64,000 nucleotides of DNA from NCBI RefSeq assembly GCF_041248615.1, contig NZ_CP158425.1, one strand, 5' to 3'. Below, in pieces: positions 5,386 to 42,235 of this stretch. Positions within the stretch are counted from its first letter, which is position 1. Each line of letters begins with the position of its first letter. A model generated the notes under the pieces. The model saw nothing but the letters and a program-made list of their open reading frames with translations, ran no database searches and was not told where the DNA came from. This stretch comes from Escherichia coli (GTDB lineage: Bacteria; Pseudomonadota; Gammaproteobacteria; Enterobacterales; Enterobacteriaceae). The position numbers were made by a program, and so were the translations under genes.

Positions 5386-5400
5386 AGAAAGTTACTTTTC
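5386..5400. promoter_or_regulatory. Palindromic operator-like site, copy 1
   Basis: AGAAAGTTACTTTTC, intergenic. Confidence 0.5.
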
Positions 5401-5580
5401 CGTAATAGTTAATTTCAGATCCTTCTTCCAGTTACGCTTCAGTATAAAACCGATACCCTCTAATTCAGCATCCTTCACGTTTAATACGCTTCACTTTAAG
5501 GCAGGGCTTTTCGGTTGATATGAATTCTTTTTCCGGTTGCTGGACATGGGTTTCATCCTGATAGTTAAAATTGCAGGCTA

Positions 5581-6315: not shown

Positions 6316-6684
6316 TTACCCTTCAAATCCAAAGACGAAACGGACGCTGCCGTTCTCCACGTGGAGACGCTTTACTTCTTCGACAAATTCCTGGATCACC
6401 TCTCCGGCGTTATCGGGTGGTATGGCTGACAAAATTTCTTCCGAAGTCAGCCATGAGTATGAATGTTCACCGAATAAATCATCATCTTCGGACGGTATAT
6501 CATCAGGTAATCCGCGTAATGCGTGGATAAAAACTGCTGATGTGCTCGCCCTTTCACGATCTACATCAAATCCGAGCCAGGCAAAGTGGAGATATGATCG
6601 GTCCCCTTTATAATTGCTTGATAAATTAATCCATTTACCAGGCTTTTCTTCCCTTTGAAATCGCCAGCAGATATCAACGCCCAT
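6316..6684 (-). CDS. Hypothetical protein
   Basis: 122-aa ORF with TGGAG 7 nt before the ATG. Confidence 0.5.
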   Translation of the reverse strand: MGVDICWRFQREEKPGKWINLSSNYKGDRSYLHFAWLGFDVDRERASTSAVFIHALRGLPDDIPSEDDDLFGEHSYSWLTSEEILSAIPPDNAGEVIQEFVEEVKRLHVENGSVRFVFGFEG

Positions 6685-6848
6685 TAAGAAACTCCATTAC
6701 TATCGTTCGTATGAGATAACTATCATTTCAGAATACTATGACTTCTTCCCGTATAGAACTAATCGCTCACGCCAACTGGGCGAAGCCAACCGGTTCCGCC
6801 ACTTCGCTCATTGGTTTTTAGGCGTAAGCACTGAAGCCAGTCTCCATG

Positions 6849-7391
6849 CTAACTGGCGAGCCTGCGAAAGTCAGACTCGTTGTTATAAAGCGGCATATCG
6901 TAAGCGGTGTCTGAAATGAACATGCGGATCTGCTCAAGCGTCATGCCACAATGAAAACGGTTTACGCTCACATTGGCCCGGGGGAAGTCAGCACAAAACG
7001 CATTCAAAACATTTTCATGGACAATGCCAATGTTGATCAACGCAGCTGGCCCGTTGTCACGGAAGGATACGACACGGAATCCCCCATACCAGCCTGAATG
7101 GGAGAAAAATGAAAATGCGCCGGATGCCAGACCATTAGACAGGTCATAGCGCAATTTCCCGCACAGAGACTGGCTGTCTTTGCTGTACACGCGATTAATG
7201 AAAATACCGGGACCAACTTCTACCGGCTGCTTGTTGCTTGCTAAACACGGAAAGCCCACCAGCGAAACCTCCCTTTCTCCTGACCAGTTTACCTGATACC
7301 CGGCAGTGAGAAAGTCCGTCAGTTCTACGCCAGAAAGAGCATTAATGGCCGCGATATCGGTAGTCAAAATATTTACGTTTTTCATATTCAT
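6849..7391 (-). CDS. Hypothetical protein
   Basis: 180-aa ORF, co-directional with its neighbours; no recognisable motif. Confidence 0.5.
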   Translation of the reverse strand: MNMKNVNILTTDIAAINALSGVELTDFLTAGYQVNWSGEREVSLVGFPCLASNKQPVEVGPGIFINRVYSKDSQSLCGKLRYDLSNGLASGAFSFFSHSGWYGGFRVVSFRDNGPAALINIGIVHENVLNAFCADFPRANVSVNRFHCGMTLEQIRMFISDTAYDMPLYNNESDFRRLAS

Positions 7392-7452
7392 CTCATCTTT
7401 ATTCTAAAGTGCGTTTTTTGTCTATCAGCCCGAGGATTGAAAATTTGAATAT

Positions 7453-7890
7453 TTAATGTGACAGATAAATACCTGTCACTTTTTCAAAAACAGCCTGTAA
7501 TTGAATATCGAGAGAGTTCATTTTAAAATCCACCAGCTCACCTTTATTATCGCAAACCAAATAAAAATAGGAGTCAAATGCGTCTGTATCTTCATCTTTA
7601 AAAATACGGAAGGAATTAATTTTATCATGCCCTTCAAATTCGGCATGAATACCATAGCGAACCGAGCCGTCATCGAACTGAACAACCCGTCGTACAGAAT
7701 TAATCCGGACGTACTGTTTTAAGGCCCTCGCGAAATCGGCATTTAACGCCAACGCTCGTAAGATTGAATCAGCGGTTTCATTCTGCTTTTTACGATCGTA
7801 TTCAAATATCCCACAGCCGGTGTTACGAAAGACCGGCTGAAGAGCATTAACCAGGTTGAAGGAATCCACGTTTCTGTCGTTTCTGTACAT
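7453..7890 (-). CDS. Hypothetical protein
   Basis: 145-aa ORF with an AGGAGA RBS. Confidence 0.55.
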   Translation of the reverse strand: MYRNDRNVDSFNLVNALQPVFRNTGCGIFEYDRKKQNETADSILRALALNADFARALKQYVRINSVRRVVQFDDGSVRYGIHAEFEGHDKINSFRIFKDEDTDAFDSYFYLVCDNKGELVDFKMNSLDIQLQAVFEKVTGIYLSH

Positions 7891-7934
7891 GAGATATCTC
7901 CTGCCCCTCCGCTATACGAAGGGGCTTGATAGGG

Positions 7935-8231
7935 TTACTGCCAGGCTGCGATCACTTCTTCGCACTGGAAATGAGATAAGCACTGCTGGAGTAGAAGAGC
8001 CAGCACCGCTGTGTTAGGGACGCGATTGTTACACCACGCGTTGAAAAGCAGCTGCCATGGACCGGCATAATACCCGGCCAGTTTCTTTTTTTGTTTAGCT
8101 GTACGGCAGCGGGAAATGGCCTGCTGATAAAGGCTTTCATTCTCATCACCAGCCCGTTTTTGCAGAGTGCGATAAATATACGAATAAAGACTGTCAGAAC
8201 AGTTTGAAGCGTACGCCAGTTGTTTTTTCAT
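7935..8231 (-). CDS. Hypothetical protein
   Basis: 98-aa ORF with a GGAGG RBS. The conserved promoter motif lies at 8275-8286. Confidence 0.55.
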   Translation of the reverse strand: MKKQLAYASNCSDSLYSYIYRTLQKRAGDENESLYQQAISRCRTAKQKKKLAGYYAGPWQLLFNAWCNNRVPNTAVLALLLQQCLSHFQCEEVIAAWQ

Positions 8232-8274
8232 AATACCTCCTGTTTAGAAGTATTATATGTAAACAGCCTCAGCG

Positions 8275-8286
8275 GCTAATAACCCG
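8275..8286 (-). promoter_or_regulatory. Conserved promoter-like motif (minus strand reads ..GGGTTATTAGC)
   Basis: About 45 nt upstream of the ATG at 8231. Confidence 0.4.
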
Positions 8287-8351
8287 TAGCAATATAATTT
8301 GCATTTTTTCTATTTCTGAAGACGCTTTTTAAATTAATATTTACTGAGTTA

Positions 8352-8630
8352 TCACAACTTATTATTCTTCCCGTCTGCTGTTTTATTAATCCCCCAGTTA
8401 GTAATCACGCCAAGTCGGCGCAATTTTTCACGTTGTTCATAAATAAAAAAATCGCCAAGGCAGTCTTTTAAAACTTCACTATCCTGATATTTTATTTTTT
8501 GAAGCATCCTCGCAACTATGGCGCGTTTCAGGAATATGGCTGCATCAGACTCAAGCATTTGTGAGGACTGTCTGACGGTCTCCTGCATGTCGACGATACT
8601 GCTGAGCTTTCGTCTGACCACGCTTAGCAT
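8352..8630 (-). CDS. Hypothetical protein
   Basis: 92-aa ORF with no clear RBS; start uncertain. Confidence 0.35.
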   Translation of the reverse strand: MLSVVRRKLSSIVDMQETVRQSSQMLESDAAIFLKRAIVARMLQKIKYQDSEVLKDCLGDFFIYEQREKLRRLGVITNWGINKTADGKNNKL

Positions 8631-8814
8631 AGTGTCCGGGAACCGCTTAGCGGCTGAATGTAACCCGCAACAACGTTACGCATTGTTTTACTCACTGCAA
8701 TTTTCCATTTAAGTCTGTTTGTTCCACCAGCTGCTAACATCAGCGTTATTCATCCTGAGGTTTCGCCCGCGATTGACAGATCAGAGGCAGCATGGATGAA
8801 ATTGCCAGAGTAGA

Positions 8815-9096
8815 TCACTGCATACGCGAATAGTGGTTTGTATTCAGTTCTGCGTTTGCCTGCTTTTCCAGTGCTGTCATAACCCGGCGGAGCATCGCCA
8901 GAGCCTGAACAGGCGAGCTCCCAAACTGCACTTTCACTTCAGCCGTATCATGATCCTGAATCAGGTCGAGTATATTCACTTCGATCCCTGCCCCGTTTTC
9001 ATCTTTTGCCGTGCACTGAATACTTACCCGGGTCACCGAATCCGTCAGGACTGGCAGTGGGTTAGTTTTGTCTACGTTGATAACAGCCTTCTTCAT
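8815..9096 (-). CDS. Hypothetical protein
   Basis: 93-aa ORF immediately downstream of the ParB-like gene on the same strand. Confidence 0.5.
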   Translation of the reverse strand: MKKAVINVDKTNPLPVLTDSVTRVSIQCTAKDENGAGIEVNILDLIQDHDTAEVKVQFGSSPVQALAMLRRVMTALEKQANAELNTNHYSRMQ

Positions 9097-9161
9097 TGCC
9101 CTGTTTCCCCTTGTCCTGAAAAAGTTACCGACCCGTCCGGATGGAGGGGTCGGTCAGAAAA

Positions 9162-10346
9162 TCATGACTGTCCCTTGTTCATCTTATCAGCATGCTTACG
9201 CAGGTACTCTTTCAGGTCAGCATGAGCGTTGATGATATCGTTCATTTCATCATTGGTCAGAACAAGCGTGTAAGTATCAGTACTGACAGATTCACCTTCT
9301 TTAAGCTTGGCTTCTTCAGCAATACGTTCAAAAATCGGGATCGCGGTGTCTGCAATGACGGTCACAGTCTTTTTGTTCAGAACGCTGGACATGGAAGGTG
9401 CTTTACCTGCCGGGTTCTGTTTAGGAGCGCTGTCCTTTGGAGCTGGAGCCGGTTCCTGTACCGGTGGCGTATCCAGCGTCTCCGTATTGCTTTCATCGTT
9501 CAGTTGATCCGGTACCGGGGTGTTATCGGTAGTATCATCTGCCGGTTGCTCAGCACCGATGTTTTCCGGAGTCTGCGGATCTGCCATGCGCTCTTCTACC
9601 TTGGCAGCTTTGACGAATTTCAGCGTGTTTTTCGTCGCCTTGCCATAGATGGAGATCGCTTTGTTGATGTTATCTACCGCATCCTCACCGCTGTACATAT
9701 ACTCGTCCAGTGCAACGTACATGCTCACCTGATCGCTCACAAGCATGGTCTGTAGTTCAGAAGGCAGGTCCAGTACGCGAACCATCTGGCGAAGATGCTG
9801 CTCTGATTTACCACGTTTTTTTGCCAGTTCCGCAAAGGTCTTAGGCTCTTCTTTATCTTCAACCAGACGCTTAATTGAAAGCGCTTCAGCTACGACAGAC
9901 AGCGCCAGGTTGGAGTTGCCGGTCAGGGTGAAGAGTTCTGCTTTTGAAGCGCTACCGCGAAACTCTTCGCAGCGAATACGAGTAATGCGTTCACGCCCTT
10001 CTGCTTCCAGCTGGCGGTTTGCAATAGCGATGGAACGGATACGGCAAGCCCCCTGACGCAGTACAGGTACGCCATTAACCATCTGAACAACGATAGGCGT
10101 CACGCTGAACGGGTCTTCCATGTAGGCATCGGCCAGGCTGTTCAGGTGTTCCACAACGTGAGGCATTGAATAGTAGAGCTCGCCCATACCGGCCGTGCGG
10201 GTGTTAAAGCCTTCCTGCTCTACAACAACCGAAGGGTCAATGATAAGGCCGTTGCCTTTACGGGCACCGTTACCAGTGCGTTCCAGGTAACCACGAAGGC
10301 TGATTTCGTTGCTGTTGTTTTTTACTTCAGTTTCGATTGCGGACAT
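9162..10346 (-). CDS. ParB N-terminal domain (ParB/KorB-like) protein, paralog 1
   Basis: EGFNTR and VLRQGACR motifs are spaced as in the ParB/sulfiredoxin-fold N-domain. The C-terminal linker is acidic and Pro-rich. Palindromic operator copies lie at 10435-10449 and 10561-10575 upstream. Confidence 0.6.
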   Translation of the reverse strand: MSAIETEVKNNSNEISLRGYLERTGNGARKGNGLIIDPSVVVEQEGFNTRTAGMGELYYSMPHVVEHLNSLADAYMEDPFSVTPIVVQMVNGVPVLRQGACRIRSIAIANRQLEAEGRERITRIRCEEFRGSASKAELFTLTGNSNLALSVVAEALSIKRLVEDKEEPKTFAELAKKRGKSEQHLRQMVRVLDLPSELQTMLVSDQVSMYVALDEYMYSGEDAVDNINKAISIYGKATKNTLKFVKAAKVEERMADPQTPENIGAEQPADDTTDNTPVPDQLNDESNTETLDTPPVQEPAPAPKDSAPKQNPAGKAPSMSSVLNKKTVTVIADTAIPIFERIAEEAKLKEGESVSTDTYTLVLTNDEMNDIINAHADLKEYLRKHADKMNKGQS

Positions 10347-10414
10347 TTTTGTTCTCTTTTTTGGTTGGTTGTTTAACTGCGCTACAACACAACAATACCA
10401 GGTTCGACATTTTT

Positions 10415-10426
10415 CCTAATAGGTTG
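10415..10426 (-). promoter_or_regulatory. Conserved promoter-like motif, variant (CAACCTATTAGG)
   Basis: About 70 nt upstream of the ParB-like paralog 1 start. Confidence 0.4.
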
Positions 10427-10434
10427 CGGAGAAG

Positions 10435-10449
10435 AAAAAGTAACTTTTT
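10435..10449. promoter_or_regulatory. Palindromic operator-like site, copy 2 (overlaps the -35 position of the ParB-like paralog 1 promoter)
   Basis: AAAAAGTAACTTTTT, adjacent to the promoter motif at 10415-10426. Confidence 0.5.
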
Positions 10450-10560
10450 TTAAAAATTTTCCTGAGGCAATACTACTCGATCCGTCCGTTTTAAATCTTC
10501 ACAACAGTGGGCCGTTTTTACGTTTAAGCAAAATAACTGGTTCAGAAGGTGACTCAGAGA

Positions 10561-10575
10561 GAAAAGTTACTTTTC
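10561..10575. promoter_or_regulatory. Palindromic operator-like site, copy 3
   Basis: GAAAAGTTACTTTTC, a perfect 7+1+7 palindrome. Confidence 0.55.
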
Positions 10576-10761
10576 CGGTTGTCTGGGCCAGTGATGGGAG
10601 AGTGGCAGGACAGGAATGGCTAAACCGGTGCGGGTCTCTTGTAAGTCGCAGGGGATTCAGGAGATATAGAGGTAAACTGGTACGTTCAGTTTTTGGATTG
10701 AGCCGGGCTTTTGGCCCGGGCTTAAGGAAGCAGAAATTTGAACGAACTGGCAGGTAATGCT

Positions 10762-10938
10762 TTATGCCGCCGACAGCTGGCCGTCAGTGCTTTGCTGTTC
10801 TGGTTTGACAGTTGGGGGATAACCGGCAGTTAGCCGCTGGCATTCCGCATCACAGAAAGCCCTGAGGTTGCTGAAGACGGACTCCATGAAATCAGCATGA
10901 GCATACGAGTCTACAGGACGTGTCTTGTTATCTTTCAT
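10762..10938 (-). CDS. Small hypothetical protein (58 aa from MKDNKTRP)
   Basis: A GAGGAG RBS precedes the internal ATG at 10938. The longer track ORF (to 10992) lacks an RBS. Confidence 0.4.
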   Translation of the reverse strand: MKDNKTRPVDSYAHADFMESVFSNLRAFCDAECQRLTAGYPPTVKPEQQSTDGQLSAA

Positions 10939-11447
10939 CTTGTTCTCCTCAATCATTATTAAAACCAGCGGATTTAGTTTCTGGCGCTCCATCTGCTGAC
11001 CGGCTTTCCCAGAGAGCAGCGATGTGTCGGGTTCTTTTTCTCATTTTATCGTTTTCATCGGGCCCATCCGGGCGTATAAGAGACCGATTTGGCATGTTTA
11101 GGAAACGTACTGGCGTAATTAAAAGCTGAGGTTGGATTTGGAATAAAAGGATGCTTTTCCCGTTTGTCGGGTCTTTCGCCACCGCTGCACGATGATTCTG
11201 TCAGGCATTCTGCGCCCTCCCAGGCTGCACATCTGGAAACAAGCGTTGGGATGTTCCCTTCCCCTGCTCACCGTAGAAAGATCGGCAAGTCCCGACGGTC
11301 GTTCCGTACGAGCCGGGTCCAAATAATGAATAAATAAAACGCCGCTTCAATTGTATTGACAATAGAAGTCAGGAGGATCATAGTGTCATTCATGGTGCGG
11401 CTTTCGCACCACCGCCCCGGCGGTACCGGGCAGAACTGGAGTACCTC

Positions 11448-12392
11448 ATGAAACTTTCCCGTCAGACGACTTCTGATACTTCTGTTGATGGCCGTTCACG
11501 CGCATATGCCTGGGGCCGTGTCCATTATTTCATTATCGAACATGCACCAATGGCTGAGCTGGTCGCTATTGACGAGCTGCTGGAAAAAGCTGGCTGGAGC
11601 AATGACGGCTGTCCGAACTATGAGAAAGATGACGAGTTTGGTAATGCTGGTTACAGCTGTGGTTACTGGATCGATATTGACAGCGTGGGAAGCTTCAAGG
11701 CTGACTACAAACGTCTTAAGGGGGAGATTAGTGCGCATATCGCCTCAAAGGCGGCAGAGGTGGAGATCCGCGTACTGGACTCGATGTCCGACAAAGAATG
11801 TAAAGATGTTGCCTCGGTGGCATCTACTGTTCGCCGTGACTTACGTACGCAGTCCGAATCGCTTCATTCACTGCGTACAATCGTAACGGTTGATCATTAC
11901 AATCCCTATGTGACCACCAGCCGCCCGCTGAGCATTTCCGCCTGGACACTTATCCACGACTGTCTGAAAACAGGCACCATCAATGACGTCTGTTCACGGT
12001 TGAGTTCATTAATCCTGCACTCTGAAGCCGCGATTGCCCGTTGTAAGGGAAGCTCCGACTACTCTTCGGAACACGCTCAGCTATCGTTTTTTGCTGGTAA
12101 CGACTATGTCACCAGACGCACCCTTGTTGATGCAGCTCACGAAGAGGCTCTGCGAATGAACCGCCGCTTTGATGAACGCATTGCAATGAACGCGGATTCT
12201 GATGCCAGAAGGCTCCAGTGCGAATTCAACCTTAGCAACCATGTCGTACAGCGTAGGACCGTTGAATCTGCTCATATCCAGGCACTCAATGAAGACGTCA
12301 CCCGTTCACAGGCGGAACCACGCTGCCCTGGAAAGCTTCTTCTGAATATGACCAGTCATGAGGAAGTGCGGGACTCACTGAGCGCCTGTTAG
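11448..12392 (+). CDS. Hypothetical protein
   Basis: 314-aa ORF with TGGAG 6 nt upstream. TTGACA at 11365-11370 is a possible -35. Confidence 0.55.
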   Translation: MKLSRQTTSDTSVDGRSRAYAWGRVHYFIIEHAPMAELVAIDELLEKAGWSNDGCPNYEKDDEFGNAGYSCGYWIDIDSVGSFKADYKRLKGEISAHIASKAAEVEIRVLDSMSDKECKDVASVASTVRRDLRTQSESLHSLRTIVTVDHYNPYVTTSRPLSISAWTLIHDCLKTGTINDVCSRLSSLILHSEAAIARCKGSSDYSSEHAQLSFFAGNDYVTRRTLVDAAHEEALRMNRRFDERIAMNADSDARRLQCEFNLSNHVVQRRTVESAHIQALNEDVTRSQAEPRCPGKLLLNMTSHEEVRDSLSAC

Positions 12393-17888: not shown

Positions 17889-18178
17889 ACCTTCCCCTCC
17901 TTATATAAAACAATCCGCCAGCAGCTCGACTGGCGGACAATGTTTGACTGGCAACAGCAAGGACATACTATTTAGTGACAAGTTTGATCTTGGTTTCACT
18001 CATTCGAAGTCGAAACTCCTGAAAACCCTGCTCTACCGCTAACTCCAGCCACTCAACGGGAATGGTATAGCTACAATCAGACCCACCCAAAGCGGCATCA
18101 CAAGCGTAATCCCAGTCCTCATCCTGAACCGCCCCGGGAATCCTGGAGACTAAACTTCCTGAGAAAGAGGTAAACAGG

Positions 18179-18505
18179 ATGACTAAAAATACTCGTTTTT
18201 CCCCCGAAGTCCGTCAACGGGCAGTCCGTATGGTTCTGGAAAGTCAGAGCGAATATGACTCACAATGGGCGACAATTTGTTCCATTGCTCCAAAGATTGG
18301 CTGTACGCCGGAGACTCTGCGTGTCTGGGTTCGCCAGCATGAGCGGGATACCGGGGGCGGTGATGGAGGGCTCACCACCGCTGAACGTCAGCGTCTGAAA
18401 GAGCTGGAACGTGAAAATCGTGAACTGCGCCGCAGTAACGATATCCTTCGCCAGGCTTCCGCTTATTTTGCGAAGGCGGAGTTCGACCGCCTCTGGAAAA
18501 AATGA
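18179..18505 (+). CDS. IS3-family transposase OrfA (HTH)
   Basis: The 108-aa [22 protein letters not shown]... matches IS629/IS1203 OrfA as I remember it. An A6 run at 18497-18502 lies at the orfA/orfB junction. Confidence 0.9.
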
Positions 18506-19392
18506 TGCCACTGCTGGATAAGCTGCGTGAGCAGTACGGGGTCGGACCGCTATGCAGCGAACTGCATATTGCCCCGTCAACGTATTACCACTGTCAGCAA
18601 CAGCGACATCATCCGGATAAACGCAGTGCCCGTGCGCAGCGCGATGACTGGCTGAAGAAAGAGATACAGCGCGTATACGATGAAAATCACAAGGTATACG
18701 GTGTGCGTAAAGTCTGGCGTCAGTTGTTACGGGAAGGTATCAGAGTGGCCAGATGCACTGTGGCACGTCTCATGGCGGTTATGGGACTTGCCGGTGTTCT
18801 CCGGGGTAAAAAGGTCCGTACGACCATCAGCCGGAAAGCCGTTGCCGCAGGCGACCGCGTAAACCGTCAGTTCGTGGCAGAACGACCTGACCAGCTGTGG
18901 GTGGCTGATTTTACTTACGTCAGCACATGGCGGGGCTTCGTCTATGTGGCGTTCATCATTGATGTGTTTGCCGGATACATCGTGGGGTGGCGGGTCTCAT
19001 CGTCCATGGAAACGACATTCGTGCTGGATGCACTGGAGCAGGCGTTATGGGCCCGTCGACCGTCCGGCACGGTCCATCACAGTGATAAAGGTTCTCAGTA
19101 TGTATCGCTGGCCTACACACAGCGGCTTAAGGAAGCCGGATTACTGGCATCAACAGGAAGTACAGGCGACTCGTATGACAACGCGATGGCGGAGAGCATC
19201 AATGGTCTTTACAAAGCGGAGGTAATACACCGTAAGAGCTGGAAAAACCGTGCAGAAGTGGAACTGGCCACACTCACGTGGGTGGACTGGTATAACAATC
19301 GACGATTGCTGGAAAGGCTGGGCCATACTCCTCCGGCAGAAGCAGAAAAAGCTTATTATGCTTCCATCGGAAACGATGATCTGGCAGCCTGA
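18502..19392 (+). CDS. IS3-family transposase OrfB (DDE integrase core)
   Basis: 296 aa with the VADFTYV...HSDKGSQY...[18 protein letters not shown] signature. Probably expressed as an OrfAB fusion by -1 frameshifting (inferred from IS3-family biology). Confidence 0.9.
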
Positions 19393-19776
19393 GTTCACAG
19401 ATAAAACACTCTCCAGGAAACCCGGGGCGGTTCATCCAGTTTTGGATTCATCCCCTGGGCGTAAGCCACAGTATCGCGGGATGCGGGAGAGCCCTCAAGC
19501 TCAGCATTAGTGATCAGGTATACACCATGACTGTGCGCGAGAAGCACTTTTGGCACCAGATGTGTGCTGGCAATTTTTGAGGATGAGGGAAAGAAAACCC
19601 TACCAGCTTTACGCGCCTCTTCTTCAGTCTGTCCCTCAGCGTTAAGGAGGGCTCCCCCCGGATAGCATGCCGGGTCATAGATCTGATCTGCGGTGACCGA
19701 AAACGTTTTTGCGGTGCGAATTTCTTCGATCAGTTTATTAATATCCGCCATTTCAAATACGAGAGTGGTCACAGGC

Positions 19777-21558: not shown

Positions 21559-22170
21559 TTAGGAACTAATAATGATGGCCTGGTCAGTTTGAGGAAGCCG
21601 GTTTCCTCTGATAAATGCAGGGTGGTTTAAACGAGAAGAAGAAATGGTCATCGCCAGAAATGTCTCTTCACGCGAACGCAGAAATTCCCCCCATGAATAG
21701 GTTTCCCATACGTCGTGAGAAAGGTCGGATTCCTTTATGTACCGGGATTGCATTGTTGGCTCAAAATCGACAGGGGCTAAACTGTCATAGGATGGATGAA
21801 CACGGTACCCCAATCCCTCCTCCGTCTGATGGTATGCATGTGCCAAAAGGACATCGTGGGAGACCAGGTCATAGTCGTTGTCCTGAACGAGCGTTTTTAC
21901 GGTATGACTAATTTCCCCAAAGCCGTCTATTTCCCAGAGCGTTATCATTGTGAACTCAGCTAAAGTTCGTGGGCTCTTTACCAGAAAGCCATTTAATGCT
22001 CGTCGCCCCTTCAGCATGCCAACGTGGTAGGTCTTGTTGGGATAGGGTTTCATTGCCACCAGCGAATCAGCTTTAAGCTCAAGTGACAATTCAGGGACAG
22101 ACACGGACATGAGAGTACACTTGTTTTTCATATGGTGAAGAATACGTGGCACAAGATGCAGATACATCAT
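21559..22170 (-). CDS. Hypothetical protein
   Basis: AAGGAG RBS; 203 aa; no recognisable motif. Confidence 0.5.
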   Translation of the reverse strand: MMYLHLVPRILHHMKNKCTLMSVSVPELSLELKADSLVAMKPYPNKTYHVGMLKGRRALNGFLVKSPRTLAEFTMITLWEIDGFGEISHTVKTLVQDNDYDLVSHDVLLAHAYHQTEEGLGYRVHPSYDSLAPVDFEPTMQSRYIKESDLSHDVWETYSWGEFLRSREETFLAMTISSSRLNHPAFIRGNRLPQTDQAIIISS

Positions 22171-22281
22171 TTTCTCCTTTTATGGATATAACTGGCAGAT
22201 CCTCAGCAGCATCAAAATAGTTAATAGACTTTTTTAATTGGTTAACCACTGTTGATTGACTTGTTTTATGTCTCTGAGAAA

Positions 22282-22848
22282 TTATTCGTTTTGTTTCTGT
22301 TCGTTATACTGCTCAAACCAGAAGACGACCGGTTTTACTACAATATGAAGCAAACCAAAACGTTCTGCGGTACGGAAATTCACGCTATATGCGCGAGCCC
22401 GTTCAACCTGTTTGGTAATTTCATTTCTCATTCCTTCAACACTAAAAGCTCCTTTAAAAAGGTTGCAGGGAGCGCATGATGGAAATAAGTTTTCTATTGC
22501 ATGCAGTTCAGGGTGCATAACCTTACCCGTACTTCGGGCAACATGAGTTACGCCGCTGCCGACCGGGGCTCTCACCAGTTCAAAGTCGCGTCGAACAGGC
22601 TCAACATGATCGGCATGCCACCCTTTTTCAGGAAGCTTGCAACCACAATAGGCACAACGCCCCCCAAATTTCATTCGCAGCTCAGCTCGCTGTATTTTAG
22701 AGATCTTATTTTTAGGTTTTGAGAACCTACCATCAGGTGATTCCGCTTTGGATAACTTTGCTGAGGGCTCAGGTAACTCAACTAAATTCCCGTTGATATT
22801 TATCACCTTGACCATATCATTTTCCGCCTTTACTAATCTCACGGGCAC
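22282..22848 (-). CDS. HNH endonuclease
   Basis: CAYCGCKL...WHADHVEPV...HAIENLFPSCAPCNLFKG is a classic HNH (CxxC...H..H...N...CxxC) signature. The start is either GTG at 22848 or ATG at 22815. Confidence 0.75.
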   Translation of the reverse strand: MPVRLVKAENDMVKVININGNLVELPEPSAKLSKAESPDGRFSKPKNKISKIQRAELRMKFGGRCAYCGCKLPEKGWHADHVEPVRRDFELVRAPVGSGVTHVARSTGKVMHPELHAIENLFPSCAPCNLFKGAFSVEGMRNEITKQVERARAYSVNFRTAERFGLLHIVVKPVVFWFEQYNEQKQNE

Positions 22849-23923: not shown

Positions 23924-26308
23924 TTATACGACCTGCCTGACCATCCTCATCAGAAGGCGGTTTAACAGTCCTTTCGCTGTCGGGCGATTGCTATCGACAT
24001 AGTAAAAACCTGTTTTGGTCGTACCGTGAGCACTGCTCAGCACCCTCAGTTCCCAGATAACGTCACGGATAACGCCGCCATTTTCTGGCTTAAGGCATTC
24101 AGATAAATGGCGCATGAAACGAGCTCTTACGGCACGGTAATAGCGGAACTCCTCTGGCTGGTTAGTATTTTCTTTCACCCGGAGTCGCTGGTTACACAGA
24201 GTTAGAACTGCATCCATCATTCCCGCCTTCAGCTTCGCCTGGATCGCACCTTGTTGCTGTTCCCTCTCACCTTCGAGTAACGTTAAGATTCTTTCTCCGA
24301 GTGCCGTCTTGTTGTGTACGTGCAACTGTACACAGGCAGCTACGCATGCCCAGAATCTGAACTTTTTTATCTGTCCACGCAATTTCCGGGCTACAACCTG
24401 ACGGTATGCAGTATCGCTGAGTATTTTAAAACGCCGACTGGCAACCAGCTCTGGAAGCGACACTCTTTCGCCTATCCCCAGGCGGGAAAAGGTTTGTCCC
24501 CGTTGTGCGAGACGATGATAGACAGCGCCCTTCCCTTTTGAAATTCGGACCGCGCCATAACGAAGAAGATACTGAGCAGCAGTCGTTGGAGTAAACTCAC
24601 CGTCAGCGATGCTCTGGCGTAACCCGTCGTATTCATGCCAGATAATCCAGGACGCCGTATCTTCTTCAACAGTCAGCTCATCCTCTTCCTCGAATGCCAC
24701 GACGACAGAACTGCTCTCTCCGGTCTTTAGGCTACGTGAAGCCCTGGGGTCAGCCTGCCCGTCAAAATAGGTCATCAGCGGCAACGTATCAGTCAGTCCA
24801 TCATAAGCTGTACCGAACCGGCCTCCGGGCAGTTTCATCCAGAGTGGAGCTGGCATTGGTGTACGGGCCACAGGCAGCATGTCAGGCTCATCCTCAAGAA
24901 GGTCCAGATCGGCCTCTTCCCAGACTCTGCGATAGATCTCAATTGCCCGAAACGGGCGAGGGTTGAAACAGTGCAACGACCAGAGGAAATCAACGTGGAT
25001 CACGTTTGCTTCATGTACAAGCCGAAATTGTGGCTCAGCCATACGACGGTTATAAGCCGTATCGTCCACCTCGCCGGAAAGTAGCTTTCTGCGATGCTTT
25101 GCCGCACGTCTGGCTTCAACATAATCAAGGCTGCAACAGACATGAAAAAGACGTTCAGTCAGGGACGAAGAAAAGATATTGGGTTGAAGACGCACATACC
25201 CGCCTTCGAACACTTTACGACCGATATAATCCCGCAGGCTCCAGTCGTACTGGATCTTAGAAAGAAATCGCTGAAGACGACTTAGGCCTGCCTGATAACC
25301 ATATTTCTCAGGGTCAGTGCGAAGGAGCGTTTCCATTGAATGGTCAACCCCTACGGCTGTGCAAAGCGAGCACCCATATCTAGCCCCACAAGCTGAGGTT
25401 CGCGTGGGTTTCTCCGGCGACCAGATACACTCTCCGGTGGCGTCTTTATAAAGCGTTGCCAGGCTGAAGTTATCCGGCATAAAGCTTGGTAAAGGGAAGC
25501 GGGATTCGGAACCACAGGCCATTAGAAAAGACCAGATGTCCTGAGTGCGCCACTCCTTTACTGGATAGAGTTCACCACCGTGCTCAGTCAGGGTTACTTT
25601 CCTCGCCTGCCCTCCCATTTTGAGGATATTTCCGGCCCTTCGGGCACTTTCATCATCCCTGGAGCCCAGCATCAGGCATACCCTGCTTCGTACGGATGCC
25701 GGGGCGTTTTTTAGATAACGAGCTTTGGCCTTGCGCAGGGGGGCGATTTTGTAGTCGGTTGAGCACTGACGGGTTGAAGAATTAGTCCAGGTCGGAAGTC
25801 CACGTCCAGTCAGAATGCGGCCTACCCAGCTCTGCGTAAGAGACGGTTGGGCGACAAGGACTGTGACCGGTAGCTGGTGTTCAGCAATGAACATTCTAAG
25901 CTGGTTGAGAACCTGTGAAGCCTGATAGTGCATCTCAGGGTTTTCGATCAGCGTATCGGACATCTGAATGAAATGATGTTCGCTGATATTTGTGCCGTTA
26001 CGTACTGCCCTGATCAATGCCATCAGAAATAGGTGAAGAAGAGAATGGGAGTCTTTACCGCCACTGTATCCCACGCACATCGTCCATCCGTCCGTAATAG
26101 CCTGATAAATAGCAGATGTGGCTGACGTGACCAGAGAAGAAAGACTCACAGTCTCCTTTTCATCGGTATAGTTCAGATCGGCATCGGTTGTCAGGGTCTC
26201 CCAAACATCAGCCCATTTATCATGTTTCAAAATGGCAGCATTAGCCGCCTCAGGAAAAATAACTTCTGAGGGTAATTCAAGGAATGAGTCACTTTTTTCA
26301 ATAAACAT
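23924..26308 (-). CDS. DndC / PAPS-reductase-like PP-loop ATPase with a long C-terminal extension (794 aa)
   Basis: PP-loop motif VGYSGGKDSHSLLHL. Downstream cysteine motif ARYGCSLCTAVGVDHSMETLL resembles the DndC/IbrA family (R[FY]GC.xCT...D.SME). The roughly 330-aa C-terminal region is unassigned. Confidence 0.65.
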   Translation of the reverse strand: MFIEKSDSFLELPSEVIFPEAANAAILKHDKWADVWETLTTDADLNYTDEKETVSLSSLVTSATSAIYQAITDGWTMCVGYSGGKDSHSLLHLFLMALIRAVRNGTNISEHHFIQMSDTLIENPEMHYQASQVLNQLRMFIAEHQLPVTVLVAQPSLTQSWVGRILTGRGLPTWTNSSTRQCSTDYKIAPLRKAKARYLKNAPASVRSRVCLMLGSRDDESARRAGNILKMGGQARKVTLTEHGGELYPVKEWRTQDIWSFLMACGSESRFPLPSFMPDNFSLATLYKDATGECIWSPEKPTRTSACGARYGCSLCTAVGVDHSMETLLRTDPEKYGYQAGLSRLQRFLSKIQYDWSLRDYIGRKVFEGGYVRLQPNIFSSSLTERLFHVCCSLDYVEARRAAKHRRKLLSGEVDDTAYNRRMAEPQFRLVHEANVIHVDFLWSLHCFNPRPFRAIEIYRRVWEEADLDLLEDEPDMLPVARTPMPAPLWMKLPGGRFGTAYDGLTDTLPLMTYFDGQADPRASRSLKTGESSSVVVAFEEEDELTVEEDTASWIIWHEYDGLRQSIADGEFTPTTAAQYLLRYGAVRISKGKGAVYHRLAQRGQTFSRLGIGERVSLPELVASRRFKILSDTAYRQVVARKLRGQIKKFRFWACVAACVQLHVHNKTALGERILTLLEGEREQQQGAIQAKLKAGMMDAVLTLCNQRLRVKENTNQPEEFRYYRAVRARFMRHLSECLKPENGGVIRDVIWELRVLSSAHGTTKTGFYYVDSNRPTAKGLLNRLLMRMVRQVV

Positions 26309-26480
26309 ATATTTTCCTGAACCACGGCATATGCTGCATCACTGATATTTTTATTAGAACTTTAAAATAACTACAGCGCAACCATTTAGCGAAATTATAT
26401 TAAATCAAAATCACGCAAATTTAATTCTTAAATAGATTTAAAATAAAAACCCATTGTAATTTAATCTCCCAGCACAGCTA

Positions 26481-28322: not shown

Positions 28323-28649
28323 CTAAAACGCAGGGTTGCCATCGAGGAAGCTCATTGGCTGGCCAATAGCGGATGCCACCCTGAGAATTTCACCTGGTGT
28401 GGCATAGCGCAGCATTTCTGAGCGTCCAAATTTCTGATACTCATCTACTGACATCTTTCTCCACTCGGGGTGAGGATCTTTTCCGCACAGTGACCAGTTG
28501 CTTTCAGAGGAATCACGACGGAGAACGTACACATCAAGCGAGGCTGTAAGCCCGCTTCCATATCCCCGCTGCGCTACAATACGAACCTGAGAACCATCGT
28601 CGCGTTGCAACGTCTGGGTTAATTTCGTGATAGGATCCTGAGAATGCAT
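28323..28649 (-). CDS. Hypothetical protein
   Basis: GAGGT RBS. The promoter motif lies at 28711-28723. Confidence 0.5.
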   Translation of the reverse strand: MHSQDPITKLTQTLQRDDGSQVRIVAQRGYGSGLTASLDVYVLRRDSSESNWSLCGKDPHPEWRKMSVDEYQKFGRSEMLRYATPGEILRVASAIGQPMSFLDGNPAF

Positions 28650-29491: not shown

Positions 29492-30742
29492 TTAAGTCCG
29501 ATACAGTTCGGCGAGCTCATCCAGCATGGGGTTACTCTTATATCCCGGTGCGGCCGTAAAAAGGTTTCGGGAAATCGCCAGCCACTCCATGATTTTGTCC
29601 GTCGCCAGCCAACGTCTGCCAAGTCGCTCGGCTGCGATGGGGACTTTATGCAAGCCAGCGAAGGGATCTACAACAAGATCTCCCGGCTCTGTCAAAAACT
29701 CAATCAGAAACGCTGCAAGCCTGGTAGGAGACGTTGCACCGTGCAGCGGAAAACCGAGCTCGCGGGCAATGGAATGGCAAAATCTCGTATCAGCGCAGCT
29801 ATTGCCGTAAAACAAAGTATTCTTGGGGATCGTTCCTTCTGTTTTATTTCCAAAGGAACCGCTTTTAAGCTGGTACGCCCCATCACCATAAAAGGTCGTG
29901 CGATTTTCACCGCCTGCTGCCTGCAATTTTAGATGCTGGTCTGAATGCGGTTGTAGTACACGTAAGTTGTTTGAACGAACCTTACTCGCATCATTGGTAA
30001 ACCACAGCACAGGCTCATACGATGAGCAGAGCTGCACCCGTTGCTTACATGCCCAGTGCGTTGGCGATGGGGGCTTACTGCGATTCACCCACTGAAGCCT
30101 GTCCATGAGCTCAAGCCCCAGCTTGTCACATAATGCCAGTGTCAGACGCTCCAGATACAGAGAACGTGAAGGCCTACCCCTATTAAAGCTATCTTGAGTG
30201 ATATTCAATGCCACACTTGCGCCCGGTACAAGCTGTTTCACGATCGGTTCGAGGATACGCAGAAGCCAGTCAATATAAGCCTGCTCGCCACGCCCCCCTC
30301 CGTGCCCGTAGTCTCTTGAATTTCGAAGGAGGTAAGGTGGCGAGGTCAGGCAAAGATGAATTTGCTCGGTGATATTGCTGAAGAAGGCATAGGCGTTTCC
30401 AAAAACCGATGCCCCAAGAGAAGTTGAGAAACCGACAACACAGAGCTTTTCCCATGACTCATGCAGGTTTGTTTTCGTCTTAGAGGCGTATCTCCAGACG
30501 CCCCGTTTTTCTGGAACGCGTTCGATGACCCCGGCCTGACGGAGAGTCTGCTGAAACCAGCGAACCTTATGTTTGACGCCGCTGGTTCTGGTTTTATCTG
30601 ACCCAAATTCTTTCAGTTCGTGCAATTCGGCATCCGACATGCCAGTTTTACGCTGCACTTCGCGATAAAGCTCGTCGTTGGTCAACGGCGATTCGGAGGC
30701 AGCGTAGATATGCGCAATTAAGTCCGTATTAATCGTACTCAT
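29492..30742 (-). CDS. DNA methyltransferase, beta-class N4/N6 family (SPPY motif), orphan
   Basis: Motif IV LTSPPY lies before motif I VVDPFAGLHKVPIAAERLGRRWLATD, which is the beta-class order. The first ~90 aa look like an N-terminal winged-helix domain. No adjacent endonuclease was recognised. Confidence 0.75.
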   Translation of the reverse strand: MSTINTDLIAHIYAASESPLTNDELYREVQRKTGMSDAELHELKEFGSDKTRTSGVKHKVRWFQQTLRQAGVIERVPEKRGVWRYASKTKTNLHESWEKLCVVGFSTSLGASVFGNAYAFFSNITEQIHLCLTSPPYLLRNSRDYGHGGGRGEQAYIDWLLRILEPIVKQLVPGASVALNITQDSFNRGRPSRSLYLERLTLALCDKLGLELMDRLQWVNRSKPPSPTHWACKQRVQLCSSYEPVLWFTNDASKVRSNNLRVLQPHSDQHLKLQAAGGENRTTFYGDGAYQLKSGSFGNKTEGTIPKNTLFYGNSCADTRFCHSIARELGFPLHGATSPTRLAAFLIEFLTEPGDLVVDPFAGLHKVPIAAERLGRRWLATDKIMEWLAISRNLFTAAPGYKSNPMLDELAELYRT

Positions 30743-35745: not shown

Positions 35746-38136
35746 TTATGTTTGAGGGAATTCTATAGCAAATGTGGCCGTGCCAGATTGACCACTTACA
35801 GCGGGAGTAACGGGATACGTGCGCTCTTCACCATTACCAAGATCCAGTGACAGCGATTTAGTTTCACCAGGCTGGACCGTAACTCCGGCAACCGTAACGC
35901 CGAACTGGGCATTTTTCTGAACAGTCAGGGTTCCGTTTAACTGTCCGGTAATGATAGAACCGTCCTGACGCCGCAACACACTGGTTCGGATGATGGCCAG
36001 CGGCGTGTTGTCCGTTGCTTTCAGTGCTACGGCTGTGGCCAGCGTCTTGAGATTATCCAGCATAATCAGATTCGCAGGCTGGTAGGTAAAATTAAGCGTT
36101 TTAGTGGTCCGGTTACCTGATTCGTCAATAGCCAGTGCCTCCAGATGATACATCTGTCCCGATTCGTCAGTGTTGGGGAAGATTCTGGGGTATTCCGGAA
36201 TAAAGACATCCTTGGATAACGGCGTGAATGCCAGGGTGACCTTTTCAGAGTTAGGTCCACCAGCGAGCTGAAGCGATGTCAGGGAAGCATCCCCAGAGGC
36301 ATCAGTAACGCTTATGCGAAGGTTCTCAAGCCCTTTAACCAGTTTTCCTTCTGCGTCTGCGCCATTAAAACTGAACGCGATAACCGGAAGCGTTGAGTCA
36401 ATTTTCAGCGGTGCATTAAGCGTTTTGGTTCCGGTGTTTCCAACAAGATCCGTGGCAGAGACGCTAACCACCGTATAATCCCCGTCCGGTAGACCAGCGT
36501 ATGAGAAGGTGGCGTTTTTGGTTTTATAATCGCTTTCACTGACGGTCACAGGCTTCAGCGTGAAAGGTTCCCCCCGGGCATTTTTAAGGGTGGCTTCGAA
36601 AACTTTGGTATCCCAGTAGCTGATGTTCCAGGCGTTGACGCGATCATTATCGGTGGCCGTCATAGTGATTGTCTTGGAGGCCTTGTTTACCTGAGCGACA
36701 TTAACCACCGGTGGGTTGTTATCCCAGATAACCGTAAAATTACCAGCAAGCGCATCGAATATGCTGTCACCATCTTTTCCCGAGTAAAGGTGCAGATACT
36801 CAAATCCTTTGTCACTGGTGTAGTTGAAGTTAACCGTCATCTCGCATGAACTTTGTCCGATAGGTATAGTGCAGAACCAGGCTGCATTTTTTACCGTTCT
36901 GAACTTTTGCACGTATGGTCGGGGTTCAGCGGTTACCTTTATGCGGCTAATGGTGGCGGTTTTAACGCTGATTGAGGCCTGAGTTAACCACTCACTGGTA
37001 TCACTCCGGTACATCTCTTTAGCCACTATCTTCGGGGCTATTTCCATCGCCGGGGCTGGAGTGAAGTTGAGGGAGTTATGATGAATTCGTCTTACTCCTC
37101 CTGCCAGAGTCTGGAATTCATGATAAGTATCCCCCACATTGGGATATATGTATTTGAAAGTATAAATATTATAAGTGCTATCGGACGTCTGGAAATTCGA
37201 GTCCGCCCAGCCATATTTGGAACCGTTAACAGCAGTAAAGTCACTTTTTTTCCTTAATACCCGTACGGAAATAGGGTTCTGGAAGACGGTCATGCCAGAC
37301 TGATAAGTGACCCATGATCCGGTAGTGGCGTCCTGCACCTGGATGATATCGTCAGGCTTAACCCGATCAATTACGCTTCGGCGGCTTAGTTCGATCCTGT
37401 TTCCCGCTTTGTCATAAAGGTAGATCCCCACTTTATATTCAGAGCGGTTTTCCGGTGCCAGGGCATTGCTGCTTGCGTCGGCGACTTGAACGGTTACGCT
37501 ACCTTCCACTGTATTAATTTCCGCTGGCTTTTTACGCTCCACTCCAGCGGCATCGGTTATGAAATATTCAGCATTAGCAAGCCCGGAACCTTTATCACTC
37601 AGTCCATTAAAGACCAGTGCCTGGACGCTGGCGTACTGCATACCGGCTGGTACTGAAGTGAAGATCGCTTCGCTGCCAAAGTTCCACCCGTTTCTCGTAT
37701 AACTTATGGTACCCGTTGCCGGAGGCGTTCGGTCAATTGCAAGCGGGTAATCCTGCCGGGAGACCTCCTTCCCTTGCAAGTCGGTAATCACCTCTCTGAG
37801 GGTGAAGCTATCTTCTCCCATCGCTGGTACGGTCAGAGTCTTGCCGTAATAATCAAAGCCTGTCGAAGATGTGGTACGGTCATCTACGGTAACCAGGCTG
37901 CTTTTCGTGCTCCAGATGAGGCTCCCGTCACTTTTCAGCAGACTGAGCGTAATATAACGGTCCAGACCGGAAATAACGGCAACGTCAAAGCTCGTTACCG
38001 GATTAATCCATACGGATGCAGGCGATACGGTCTTTTTAACGTTCAGGGTATCTTTAAAGCTGAATTCTGCGATTTCAGCGGAAGCTCCTGCGCTGAAACC
38101 TGCAAATGCAATAAGCAGGGCTAGTTTGATTTTCAT
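35746..38136 (-). CDS. Secreted large beta-rich (Ig-like repeat?) protein, paralog A
   Basis: AGGAGA RBS before the ATG at 38136. Signal peptide MKIKLALLIAFAGFSAGASA. Shares GLDRY, YYGK.L.PA.GE, GLENLRI, GGP and EYPRIFPN blocks with 43689-46109 and 50384-52840. Confidence 0.7.
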   Translation of the reverse strand: MKIKLALLIAFAGFSAGASAEIAEFSFKDTLNVKKTVSPASVWINPVTSFDVAVISGLDRYITLSLLKSDGSLIWSTKSSLVTVDDRTTSSTGFDYYGKTLTVPAMGEDSFTLREVITDLQGKEVSRQDYPLAIDRTPPATGTISYTRNGWNFGSEAIFTSVPAGMQYASVQALVFNGLSDKGSGLANAEYFITDAAGVERKKPAEINTVEGSVTVQVADASSNALAPENRSEYKVGIYLYDKAGNRIELSRRSVIDRVKPDDIIQVQDATTGSWVTYQSGMTVFQNPISVRVLRKKSDFTAVNGSKYGWADSNFQTSDSTYNIYTFKYIYPNVGDTYHEFQTLAGGVRRIHHNSLNFTPAPAMEIAPKIVAKEMYRSDTSEWLTQASISVKTATISRIKVTAEPRPYVQKFRTVKNAAWFCTIPIGQSSCEMTVNFNYTSDKGFEYLHLYSGKDGDSIFDALAGNFTVIWDNNPPVVNVAQVNKASKTITMTATDNDRVNAWNISYWDTKVFEATLKNARGEPFTLKPVTVSESDYKTKNATFSYAGLPDGDYTVVSVSATDLVGNTGTKTLNAPLKIDSTLPVIAFSFNGADAEGKLVKGLENLRISVTDASGDASLTSLQLAGGPNSEKVTLAFTPLSKDVFIPEYPRIFPNTDESGQMYHLEALAIDESGNRTTKTLNFTYQPANLIMLDNLKTLATAVALKATDNTPLAIIRTSVLRRQDGSIITGQLNGTLTVQKNAQFGVTVAGVTVQPGETKSLSLDLGNGEERTYPVTPAVSGQSGTATFAIEFPQT

Positions 38137-38269
38137 GGGTTGTCTCCTGATCAGGTTCCCCATGATACTTTTTCAGTGTTCGAGATCTTTTCGGGAAAAT
38201 AGCTAATTTTAATGTTTTTCTTTTCTGCCCGGCGGGACTTGTTTTGTTTACGTAAATGCAAAAATACAA

Positions 38270-41393: not shown

Positions 41394-41473
41394 CCAAGGC
41401 CAAATCTGAATTGTCCTGTTTAAGTAACCAACCCGCTGCCGCCAGGCGGGTAAATCCTCTTAATGGAGTTTTA

Positions 41474-42235
41474 ATGCAAATCTCAACTGAAGTTCTGAAC
41501 GTCTTATCTCGCTGCCGTGCTGAAGGGAACTTTCTTTTCCTGGCCGACCAGCTCGACCGCAGCATTTATGTTAAGACAAACAAAGTGCTGGAAGCTGCCG
41601 GTGGCAAATGGAACCGAAAAGAGCAGGCACATATTTTTACGGCGGATGCAGCTGAGCGTATCGAGCAAATCATTCTGACAGGTTCGGTCGACATCCCACG
41701 TGATTTGTTCAATTTCTTCCCTACCCCTGAGAATTTAGTCACAGATATGGTTCTACGCGCTGAACCAGCTGCCGGGGAACGTGTTCTGGAGCCTGAGTTT
41801 GGTGATGGCCGCATTCTGAAAGCCTTAAAACTGGCGGCTCCGGATGCATTGATTACCGGGATCGAATTGAACGATGAGCGATTCCTTGCAGTGAAGAACG
41901 ATAGTGTCCTTAGCACAGGGGCCGAGCTGGTGCATACCGACTTTCTTGGGTACCAGCCCGATGAAACTTTTGATGTTATCGTTATGAATCCACCATTCCT
42001 TAAACGCTCTGACGTTAAACATGTCATGCATGCCATCGCAATGCTCGCTAAGCGAGGTCGCTTACAGGCCATTCTGTCAGCTGGGGTATTGTTCCGGGAA
42101 GACACACTGACAAAAGCGCTCAGGGAGCGAGTCAAACAACTTGGCGGACAAATTTCGCCTCTTCCGGATGATACATTTAGGGAGTCCGGAACAAAGGTCA
42201 AAACAGCCCGCCTTGAAATTGATCTTCGCCGCTAA
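41474..42235 (+). CDS. N6-adenine-type DNA methyltransferase (NPPF motif), orphan
   Basis: Motif I VLEPEFGDGRIL and motif IV FDVIVMNPPF. ATG at 41474 is preceded by TGGAG. Paralogous to the C-terminal half of the IS-disrupted gene at 54842-55913. Confidence 0.7.
   Translation: MQISTEVLNVLSRCRAEGNFLFLADQLDRSIYVKTNKVLEAAGGKWNRKEQAHIFTADAAERIEQIILTGSVDIPRDLFNFFPTPENLVTDMVLRAEPAAGERVLEPEFGDGRILKALKLAAPDALITGIELNDERFLAVKNDSVLSTGAELVHTDFLGYQPDETFDVIVMNPPFLKRSDVKHVMHAIAMLAKRGRLQAILSAGVLFREDTLTKALRERVKQLGGQISPLPDDTFRESGTKVKTARLEIDLRR

Follow-up and report, generated by a model that had tools for sequence, protein, structure and literature searches.

A stand-alone DndC-like protein with a family-specific C-terminal module on IncHI2 plasmids and other mobile elements

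Introduction

What might a relative of DndC do on a plasmid where no Dnd or Ssp partner can be recognised beside it? This question is raised by a gene in a 64,000-nucleotide stretch of an Escherichia coli contig (NZ_CP158425.1; hereafter the window), which consists of IncHI2 plasmid backbone. A first reading of the letters alone (the original prediction) had placed a stand-alone, 794-residue DndC/IbrA-like PP-loop enzyme at 23924-26308. The open reading frame (ORF) there is complete, with an ATG start and 794 codons plus stop in the ORF list and translation, and both of the motifs that had been pointed out are present; it runs on the minus strand. Here we tentatively propose, from sequence comparison, that the gene encodes an active, dispensable stand-alone nucleic-acid sulfurtransferase related to DndC, probably used for counter-defence, and we weigh this reading against its rivals.

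Results

A complete gene with a DndC-like catalytic core

The ORF is a real gene and no accident of the reading frame: its full-length homologues span 98% down to ~28% identity, its ratio of nonsynonymous to synonymous substitution rates (dN/dS) against orthologues lies at 0.05-0.10, and AlphaFold models the protein with confidence (predicted local distance difference test, pLDDT, 86.5). The protein is identical to WP_000469466.1, which RefSeq names only 'phosphoadenosine phosphosulfate reductase family protein'. A ribosome-binding site, AGGA, can be read from the sequence 6 nt upstream of the ATG (26315-26318, minus), within an AT-rich 172-bp intergenic region in which no strong sigma-70 consensus was found.

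The N-terminal part of the protein is a PP-loop ATP-pyrophosphatase domain with the phosphoadenosine phosphosulfate (PAPS) reductase fold (residues 60-270; 25499-26131, minus), recognised by Pfam, Foldseek and its invariant residues. The Pfam PAPS_reduct match (PF01507, residues 78-264) is a borderline pass at 25.8 bits against a threshold of 22.5, and this gathering threshold and the fold both place the protein in the PAPS reductase superfamily. Foldseek matches to the domain include CysH, the PAPS domain of FAD synthase and TtuA, with target-normalised template modelling (TM) scores of ~0.6 for the model against the first two; GMP and NAD synthetases share the fold. The segment VGYSGGKDSHSLLHL, beginning at residue 79, carries the SGGKDS motif of the PP-loop (residues 82-87; 26048-26065, minus), in which S82, G84, K85, D86 and S87 are without variation across 45 homologues, including relatives down to 25% identity. 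Five cysteines, C182, C294, C307, C313 and C316, are likewise invariant in the alignment of 45 homologues (residues 182-316; 25361-25765, minus). Their span includes the GCSLC motif (25361-25372, minus), and the cysteine segment ARYGCSLCTAVGVDHSMETLL begins at residue 309.

In DndC, described as an ATP pyrophosphatase of the PP-loop type, three cysteines are reported to hold a [4Fe-4S] cluster, beside a characteristic cysteine dyad (PMC10853773). The DndC used for comparison was one Halorubrum plasmid protein, from an operon of dndC, dndD, dndE and a cysteine desulfurase gene. A profile of the 45-sequence family aligned with it by hhalign over residues 70-444 (24977-26101, minus; probability 100, E 9e-40), a region also covered by a PADLOC DndC model, and each of the five cysteines faces a cysteine of the Halorubrum protein (in RWC, DEC, SCG and GCWTC). 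The alignment thus contains the SGGxDS loop of DndC, its predicted [4Fe-4S] cysteines and its cysteine dyad. Since the SGGKDS loop and the five cysteines facing DndC equivalents are all invariant, the whole catalytic apparatus of DndC appears to be kept.

The protein also matches DndC profiles much more strongly than the Pfam domain, both in PADLOC (E 4e-38; one model, PDLC02661, aligns over residues 63-474) and in NCBIfam (TIGR03183, E 6.4e-34). The scores lie far below those that mark an equivalog, at 117.6 against 290.4 bits for TIGR03183 and 129.9 against 536 for PRK06850. Because score cut-off and operon context were both tested and neither is that of a DndC, the protein classes by sequence as a DndC relative and not as a DndC equivalog. 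The original assignment to a DndC-type PP-loop enzyme is supported by the homology over residues 70-444 and the conservation of all DndC-aligned cysteines, and among the profile searches that it had proposed, PF01507 and the DndC TIGRFAM gave matches and DUF3440 gave none.

The same fold could serve another substrate: the enzyme might thiolate or adenylate tRNA, other RNA, a nucleotide or a small molecule, and so retune host translation or nucleotide pools. Its fold is common to TtuA, CysH, FAD synthase and the GMP and NAD synthetases, the TtcA and TilS profiles match weakly at the PP-loop, no DNA-binding domain was recognised, and the copy on IncC plasmids lies two genes upstream of a gene for a YfbR-like 5'-deoxynucleotidase. 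However, the DndC models lead by ~100 bits (~118-130, against 17.8 for TtcA and 13.8 for TilS), homology to DndC continues ~180 residues past the PP-loop domain with the DndC cysteine pattern included, and the neighbours are DNA methyltransferases and DNA-handling genes. We regard a non-DNA substrate as unlikely, and membership of a tRNA-modifying PP-loop family, which the original prediction had named as the contrary outcome, did not emerge from the profiles.

A C-terminal module specific to the family

The region homologous to DndC is followed by a family-specific alpha/beta module (residues 445-625; 24434-24976, minus) that is present in all relatives. Among 1.84 billion representative proteins, a profile of this module matched no more than 356 clusters. 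In the long matches it is preceded by ~360-520 N-terminal residues, and short matches resemble fragments; seven of ten long matches scanned contain PAPS_reduct, and the other three contain no Pfam family. A diverged DndC C-terminus was considered as its origin and rejected, hhalign against the one Halorubrum DndC showing no similarity. We define the stand-alone family by a DndC-like core followed by this module, an order that the 794-residue protein displays.

Beyond the module lies a basic, all-helical tail (residues 626-794; 23927-24433, minus) with an isoelectric point of 10.4 and a net charge of +17. The tail is limited to a branch of ~800-residue proteins, mostly from enterobacterial plasmids, and is the fastest-evolving part of the protein. 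Neither module nor tail had a significant match among the solved folds with which they were compared, and there was no PHROG match for residues 476-794 and no Pfam match past residue 264. The original prediction had seen one C-terminal region of ~330 residues without a motif; the lack of any Pfam, PHROG or solved-fold match agrees with this, but the region is really two parts, the module and the tail.

No conserved partner accompanies the gene

PADLOC and Pfam scans of the 89 window ORFs, with a limit of E <= 1e-4, listed 25 of 58 and 25 of 27 families, respectively. Among these listed families, the DndC match belongs to this ORF only, and there is no DndA, DndB, DndD, DndE, Ssp protein, cysteine desulfurase, QueC or TGT; SspB/C, PglZ and BrxL are also missing from them. 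In RefSeq, no dnd or ssp partner is annotated in the identical region of the plasmid, and DndD, DndE, DndA, SspB/C, PglZ, QueC and TGT are absent from the precomputed Pfam annotation of related loci. When the ORFs of 18 loci were compared all against all by BLASTP in search of a conserved partner, only the DndC-like enzyme was common to them. As far as the PADLOC and Pfam scan and the RefSeq annotation reach, the claim that the window holds no Dnd or Ssp partners stands, and the comparison of gene neighbourhoods upholds the stand-alone status, with no partner conserved over 18 diverse loci.

The immediate neighbours of the DndC-like gene have no Pfam match. Across elements, DndC-like genes always lie in long same-strand arrays of small genes without assigned function, in company that differs by element and includes orphan DNA methyltransferases, HNH and VRR-NUC nucleases, DUF3085, RadC, DUF4942, Toprim primases, Rad52 and a polyvalent protein.

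Distribution on mobile elements

The DndC-like family is carried by mobile elements only. A 4.5-kb stretch around the gene recurs with 100% identity on many plasmids of 200-370 kb from E. coli and Salmonella, and it is matched in 1,010 PLSDB records and in 250 of 5,426 complete E. coli genomes; the carrier plasmids are typed IncHI2A/MOBH/MPF_F. An orthologue of ~75% identity occurs in a syntenic block of IncHI1A plasmids, and IncC plasmids encode an 817-residue relative that is 47% identical. Relatives of 669 residues are found on plasmids of ~70-115 kb with KorB and ParA genes in Citrobacter, Salmonella and Enterobacter, and full-length relatives are encoded on pMOL30 of Cupriavidus and in loci resembling plasmids or integrative and conjugative elements (ICEs) in metagenomes and other bacteria. 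A tblastn search found matches in 2,796 of 72,556 plasmid records, and 77% of the matching records are conjugative. Besides clear family members, the count takes in distant relatives among the PAPS reductases, such as those on plasmids of Bacillus and Pseudomonas.

A scan of genome contigs with a 12-sequence alignment returned 12 loci only, mostly close relatives. Viral contigs scanned with the close group of relatives gave no locus, and the distant group gave 13, of which the one examined is a lambdoid prophage (L028; IMG/VR UViG_2609460199_000002, 4154-11554) with a 591-residue family member in its early operon. The gene order there is repressor, small genes, DndC-like gene, O-like gene, P-like helicase loader, DNA methyltransferase and Q-like antiterminator; the DndC-like gene overlaps the start of the O-like replication gene, and the methyltransferase gene lies ~3 kb further downstream.

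In the lineage of the 669-residue relatives, and only there, the DndC-like gene has a DndB-family/DGQHR gene two places upstream (L004, 8443-9558; L011, 7473-8543), without dndD or dndE; the two genes may be the remnant of a dndB-dndC pair. BLASTP of this DndB/DGQHR protein against all window ORFs gave no match. On an IncC-type contig encoding an 817-residue relative (L003), a gene for Csf3 of type IV CRISPR-Cas lies ~10 kb downstream (21887-22454, minus).

Selection and natural loss

Intact copies are under purifying constraint, with dN/dS of 0.05-0.08 against two ~75%-identical IncHI1A-type orthologues (a comparison in which dS is saturated) and 0.10 within IncHI2. The values are lowest in the catalytic core (0.036-0.046), where the constraint is strong. 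Between IncHI2 and IncHI1 the DndC-like protein is 76% conserved, against 50-69% for most syntenic neighbours.

The gene is nevertheless dispensable. Its 3' part is present in 979 PLSDB plasmids and its 5' catalytic part in 786 only, so that ~20% of IncHI2 plasmids lack the catalytic half, a deficit found mainly in Enterobacter, Klebsiella and Citrobacter. IncHI2 plasmids of these three genera carry 5'-truncated alleles encoding residues 312-794 only (484-486 residues). In an IncHI1-type lineage, an in-frame deletion of about residues 154-345 leaves a 600-residue allele from which half of the PP-loop domain and all five cysteines are gone, and in Morganella one copy is a pseudogene, split into three ORFs. 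Insertion sequence (IS) insertions and deletions are common nearby, and 656 of the 1,010 records keep at least 80% of the surrounding 4.5 kb in one piece.

Such losses would be expected if the gene were a relic without present function in IncHI2, on its way to disappearance, and the missing 5' halves, the disturbed surroundings, the in-frame deletion allele and the pseudogenes all fit that account. It is hard to reconcile with the dN/dS of 0.05-0.10 of intact copies, whose catalytic residues never vary, or with a gene that is more conserved between IncHI2 and IncHI1 than most of its neighbours, and we judge it highly improbable.

ParB-like genes and the transfer region

Three proteins of 351-394 residues with a ParB-type helix-turn-helix (HTH) domain are encoded in the window, all on the minus strand (9162-10346, 58095-59258 and 62469-63524; Pfam PF17762, E 5e-6 to 1e-4). 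These paralogues are hypothetical proteins in RefSeq. Their genes lie 13.6-36 kb from the DndC-like gene, the nearest being that at 9162-10346, 13.6 kb away; the original prediction had correctly noted three ParB-like genes, none of them adjacent. Its comparison with IbrA did not survive. A DUF3440 domain was not matched in the 794-residue protein even at E <= 1, the Pfam list consisting of PAPS_reduct and a weak ATP_bind_3, and there is no adjacent ParB-like gene in the place of ibrB.

An IbrA-like regulator might still act in trans with a ParB-like protein of the plasmid, controlling expression without bulk modification of DNA. IbrA/IbrB, in work by Sandt et al. in 2002, is said to pair a PAPS-reductase-domain protein with a ParB-like protein and would be a precedent; the window holds three ParB-HTH paralogues, and a DndB/DGQHR gene, of the ParB superfamily, lies near the 669-residue relatives. 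We nonetheless think this very unlikely, given the missing DUF3440 match, the lack of a ParB-like gene within 13 kb or of one conserved in an adjacent position over 18 loci, and the closest profiles, which are those of DndC.

The origin of transfer (oriT) presumably lies upstream of mobI, where we place it by analogy with related MOBH elements. About 31 kb separate the DndC-like gene from this site; the gene lies on the side of the relaxase, in an array that converges on the mobI-mobH-traD operon. Given this relaxase-side position and the converging array, membership of the leading region is not established, and the suggestion that the enzyme belongs to the transfer or establishment programme is not upheld.

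Proposed function

In the sulfurtransferase reading that we tentatively favour, the enzyme would act on a nucleic acid, in all likelihood the DNA of the element itself. With ATP it would activate an oxygen there, of a phosphate or a carbonyl group, and would exchange the activated oxygen for sulfur from the host cysteine desulfurase IscS. The C-terminal module and tail would stand in for DndD and DndE in substrate targeting, and the purpose would be counter-defence or epigenetic camouflage, beside the neighbouring orphan methyltransferases. Counter-defence is suggested by two phage precedents. Two phage-specific genes of a Vibrio phage, one of them a PAPS-domain/Dam fusion, give escape from host Dnd (bioRxiv 10.1101/2021.05.05.442762), and the PAPS reductases of Aca-regulated phage operons have been proposed as anti-defence genes (PMC13551039). 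As counter-defence would be useful only in some hosts, such a gene would be easily lost. A more demanding version, in which a single self-sufficient polypeptide would mark the element's own DNA with a phosphorothioate or other sulfur mark, needing only host IscS and replacing DndD/DndE by module and tail, seems to us decidedly doubtful.

The Vibrio phage precedent lends itself to a second account, in which the protein would be a specific anti-Dnd or anti-Ssp factor acting in trans. After entry it might join the DndD/DndE (or SspB/C) of a recipient and so mark the element as self, or compete with host DndC for IscS or DndDE and thereby disarm restriction that depends on phosphorothioates. Two Vibrio phage genes, one a PAPS-domain/Dam fusion, are enough to escape Dnd; the plasmid protein keeps the whole of the DndC core, which would make the contacts with partners; the DndB/DGQHR gene of one plasmid lineage hints at descent from a dnd cluster; and frequent loss fits a benefit confined to the minority of hosts with Dnd or Ssp. 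A pure decoy, however, would need no invariant PP-loop and five cysteines across relatives of 25-30% identity, the protein, whose module has no counterpart in the compared DndC, is hence no simple spare part, and interaction with many host DndDE pairs seems unlikely for broad-host-range plasmids. On these sequence features we hold an anti-Dnd factor to be possible, if somewhat unlikely.

Several points weigh against the sulfurtransferase reading itself. DndD and DndE are regarded as the DNA-scanning functional core of Dnd, and modification of DNA by DndC on its own is not known (PMC10853773). The C-terminal parts, which would have to replace them, contain no recognisable DNA-binding fold in the solved-fold comparison, and substrate and product are both read from sequence. 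A location in the leading region, as noted above, is not established, and the frequent loss of the gene marks it as unnecessary for maintenance or spread in clinical lineages. Hosts of IncHI2 and IncC plasmids are routinely typed by pulsed-field gel electrophoresis (PFGE), and we know of no report that carriers of these plasmids show, in electrophoresis, the DNA-degradation phenotype of phosphorothioated DNA, which argues against dense constitutive modification.

Plasmids of the IncHI2, IncHI1 and IncC types are among the major carriers of mcr-1, of carbapenemase genes and of other genes for multidrug resistance. If the self-sufficient version is correct, the sulfur mark would be a portable backbone modification, offering broad anti-restriction camouflage to conjugative plasmids, ICEs and temperate phages; resistance plasmids of these three types would belong to the ~4% of sequenced plasmids so equipped. 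Should a lone DndC-type enzyme modify DNA without DndD/DndE, the accepted view that phosphorothioation needs a multi-protein Dnd or Ssp system would change, and a sulfur-based route would join the anti-restriction tools of mobile elements. If the protein instead disarms Dnd or Ssp, it would be a plasmid counterpart of the phage PAPS-domain anti-Dnd gene. It is an easily tested target either way, being one gene with clear catalytic residues and with natural loss-of-function alleles as ready controls.

Other features of the window

At least four DNA methyltransferase-type genes were found in the window, with no restriction partner seen, and the plasmid looks heavily invested in self-modification. 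They are a gene with Mrr_N and N6_N4_Mtase domains (29492-30742, minus), an MTS-type methyltransferase (41411-42235, plus), the MTS-domain ORF of a split DUF4942/MTS gene (54842-55840, minus) and a Dam-like D12 methylase (59607-60440, plus); the MTS-type and D12 genes are assigned by way of the pooled Pfam scan and the annotation that RefSeq gives for pSA186_MCR1. An IS3-family element of 1,319 bp is present in two direct copies on the plus strand (~18121-19438 and ~55910-57228; 98.3% identical), with HTH_Tnp_1 and rve ORFs. The second copy appears to split the DUF4942/methyltransferase gene, which is intact (563 residues) in pSA186_MCR1, of which a DUF4942 ORF (57221-57847) and an MTS-domain ORF (54842-55840) remain. 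The first copy directly adjoins a DUF3085 ORF that is shortened (19395-19772).

About 2 kb upstream of the DndC-like gene is a 108-residue ORF with no family match (28323-28649, minus). In two Kluyvera loci (L017 and L021) a homologue is the next gene upstream of the one for the DndC-like enzyme, and another is syntenic in the IncHI1-type lineage at 62% identity; as the ORF recurs only in close enterobacterial lineages, any link to the DndC-like enzyme may be confined to these.

Three paralogues of 805-818 residues with Big_3_3/Big_3_2 immunoglobulin (Ig)-like domains and DUF4165 flank the RepHI2 replicon (35746-38163, minus; 43689-46109, plus; 50384-52840, minus). Between an Ig-like gene and repHI2 lies an unannotated 229-residue ORF (47135-47824, minus) that matches Pfam FCSD_central, a sulfide dehydrogenase family, at E 5e-8. 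This candidate link to sulfur was judged spurious, the match covering 28 residues only, and the ORF is probably a spurious one across the replication-origin region and no sulfur enzyme.

Comparison with known systems

The idea that PAPS reductases of mobile elements serve as anti-defence genes is already in the literature. A known protein of similar setting is p0018 of Vibrio phage 44E38.1, one member of the anti-Dnd gene pair, which likewise has a PAPS-reductase domain, belongs to a mobile element without Dnd partners and keeps company with DNA methylation. The phage protein has 479 residues and a PAPS domain fused to Dam, whereas the plasmid protein has no methyltransferase domain and an unrelated C-terminus. 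A PADLOC methyltransferase-type model, which may represent the phage fusion and whose N-terminal part aligns with the PAPS region, matches residues 65-334 (7.5e-23).

Other PAPS-reductase-like proteins share less. SspD and BrxP belong to the same superfamily and presumably share the same chemistry, and BrxP is fused to a C-terminal targeting domain, DUF4007, and is reported to lack the DndC cysteine dyad (PMC12839542). The plasmid protein, in contrast, keeps that dyad, matches BrxP weakly (23 bits) and SspD not at all, and neither SspB/C nor PglZ/BrxL is among the families listed for the window. IbrA/IbrB offers a PAPS-reductase domain, an association with mobile elements and, as here, ParB-like genes on the same replicon; the plasmid protein differs in having no DUF3440, no adjacent ParB-like gene and DndC as its closest profiles. 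CasCysH of plasmid-borne type IV-B CRISPR-Cas, also a plasmid-associated, PP-loop PAPS-reductase-like protein, reportedly has no catalytic cysteine and is associated with csf genes (PMC8175902), whereas the plasmid protein keeps all DndC-aligned cysteines and the Pfam families listed for the window contain no csf family. The protein is thus not IbrA, SspD, BrxP or CasCysH. TtcA and TtuA share its fold, TtuA being among the structural matches, and the same general chemistry of ATP activation with sulfur on an Fe-S cluster, but sequence similarity is confined to the PP-loop, where TtcA scores 17.8 bits against a cut-off of 272.

A literature search found no published functional study of the IncHI2 or IncC PAPS reductase or of a stand-alone or orphan DndC. 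The nearest relative in sequence remains DndC (DptC), with which the protein shares homology over residues 70-444, the same SGGKDS PP-loop and five aligned cysteines including GCxxC. It differs in scoring far below the equivalog cut-off, in having no dndA, dndB, dndD or dndE beside the gene among the listed families, in bearing a module and basic tail in place of the DndC C-terminus, and in residing on mobile elements and not in defence islands. These sequence comparisons describe a stand-alone DndC-like family that is specific to mobile elements and has a C-terminal module of its own.

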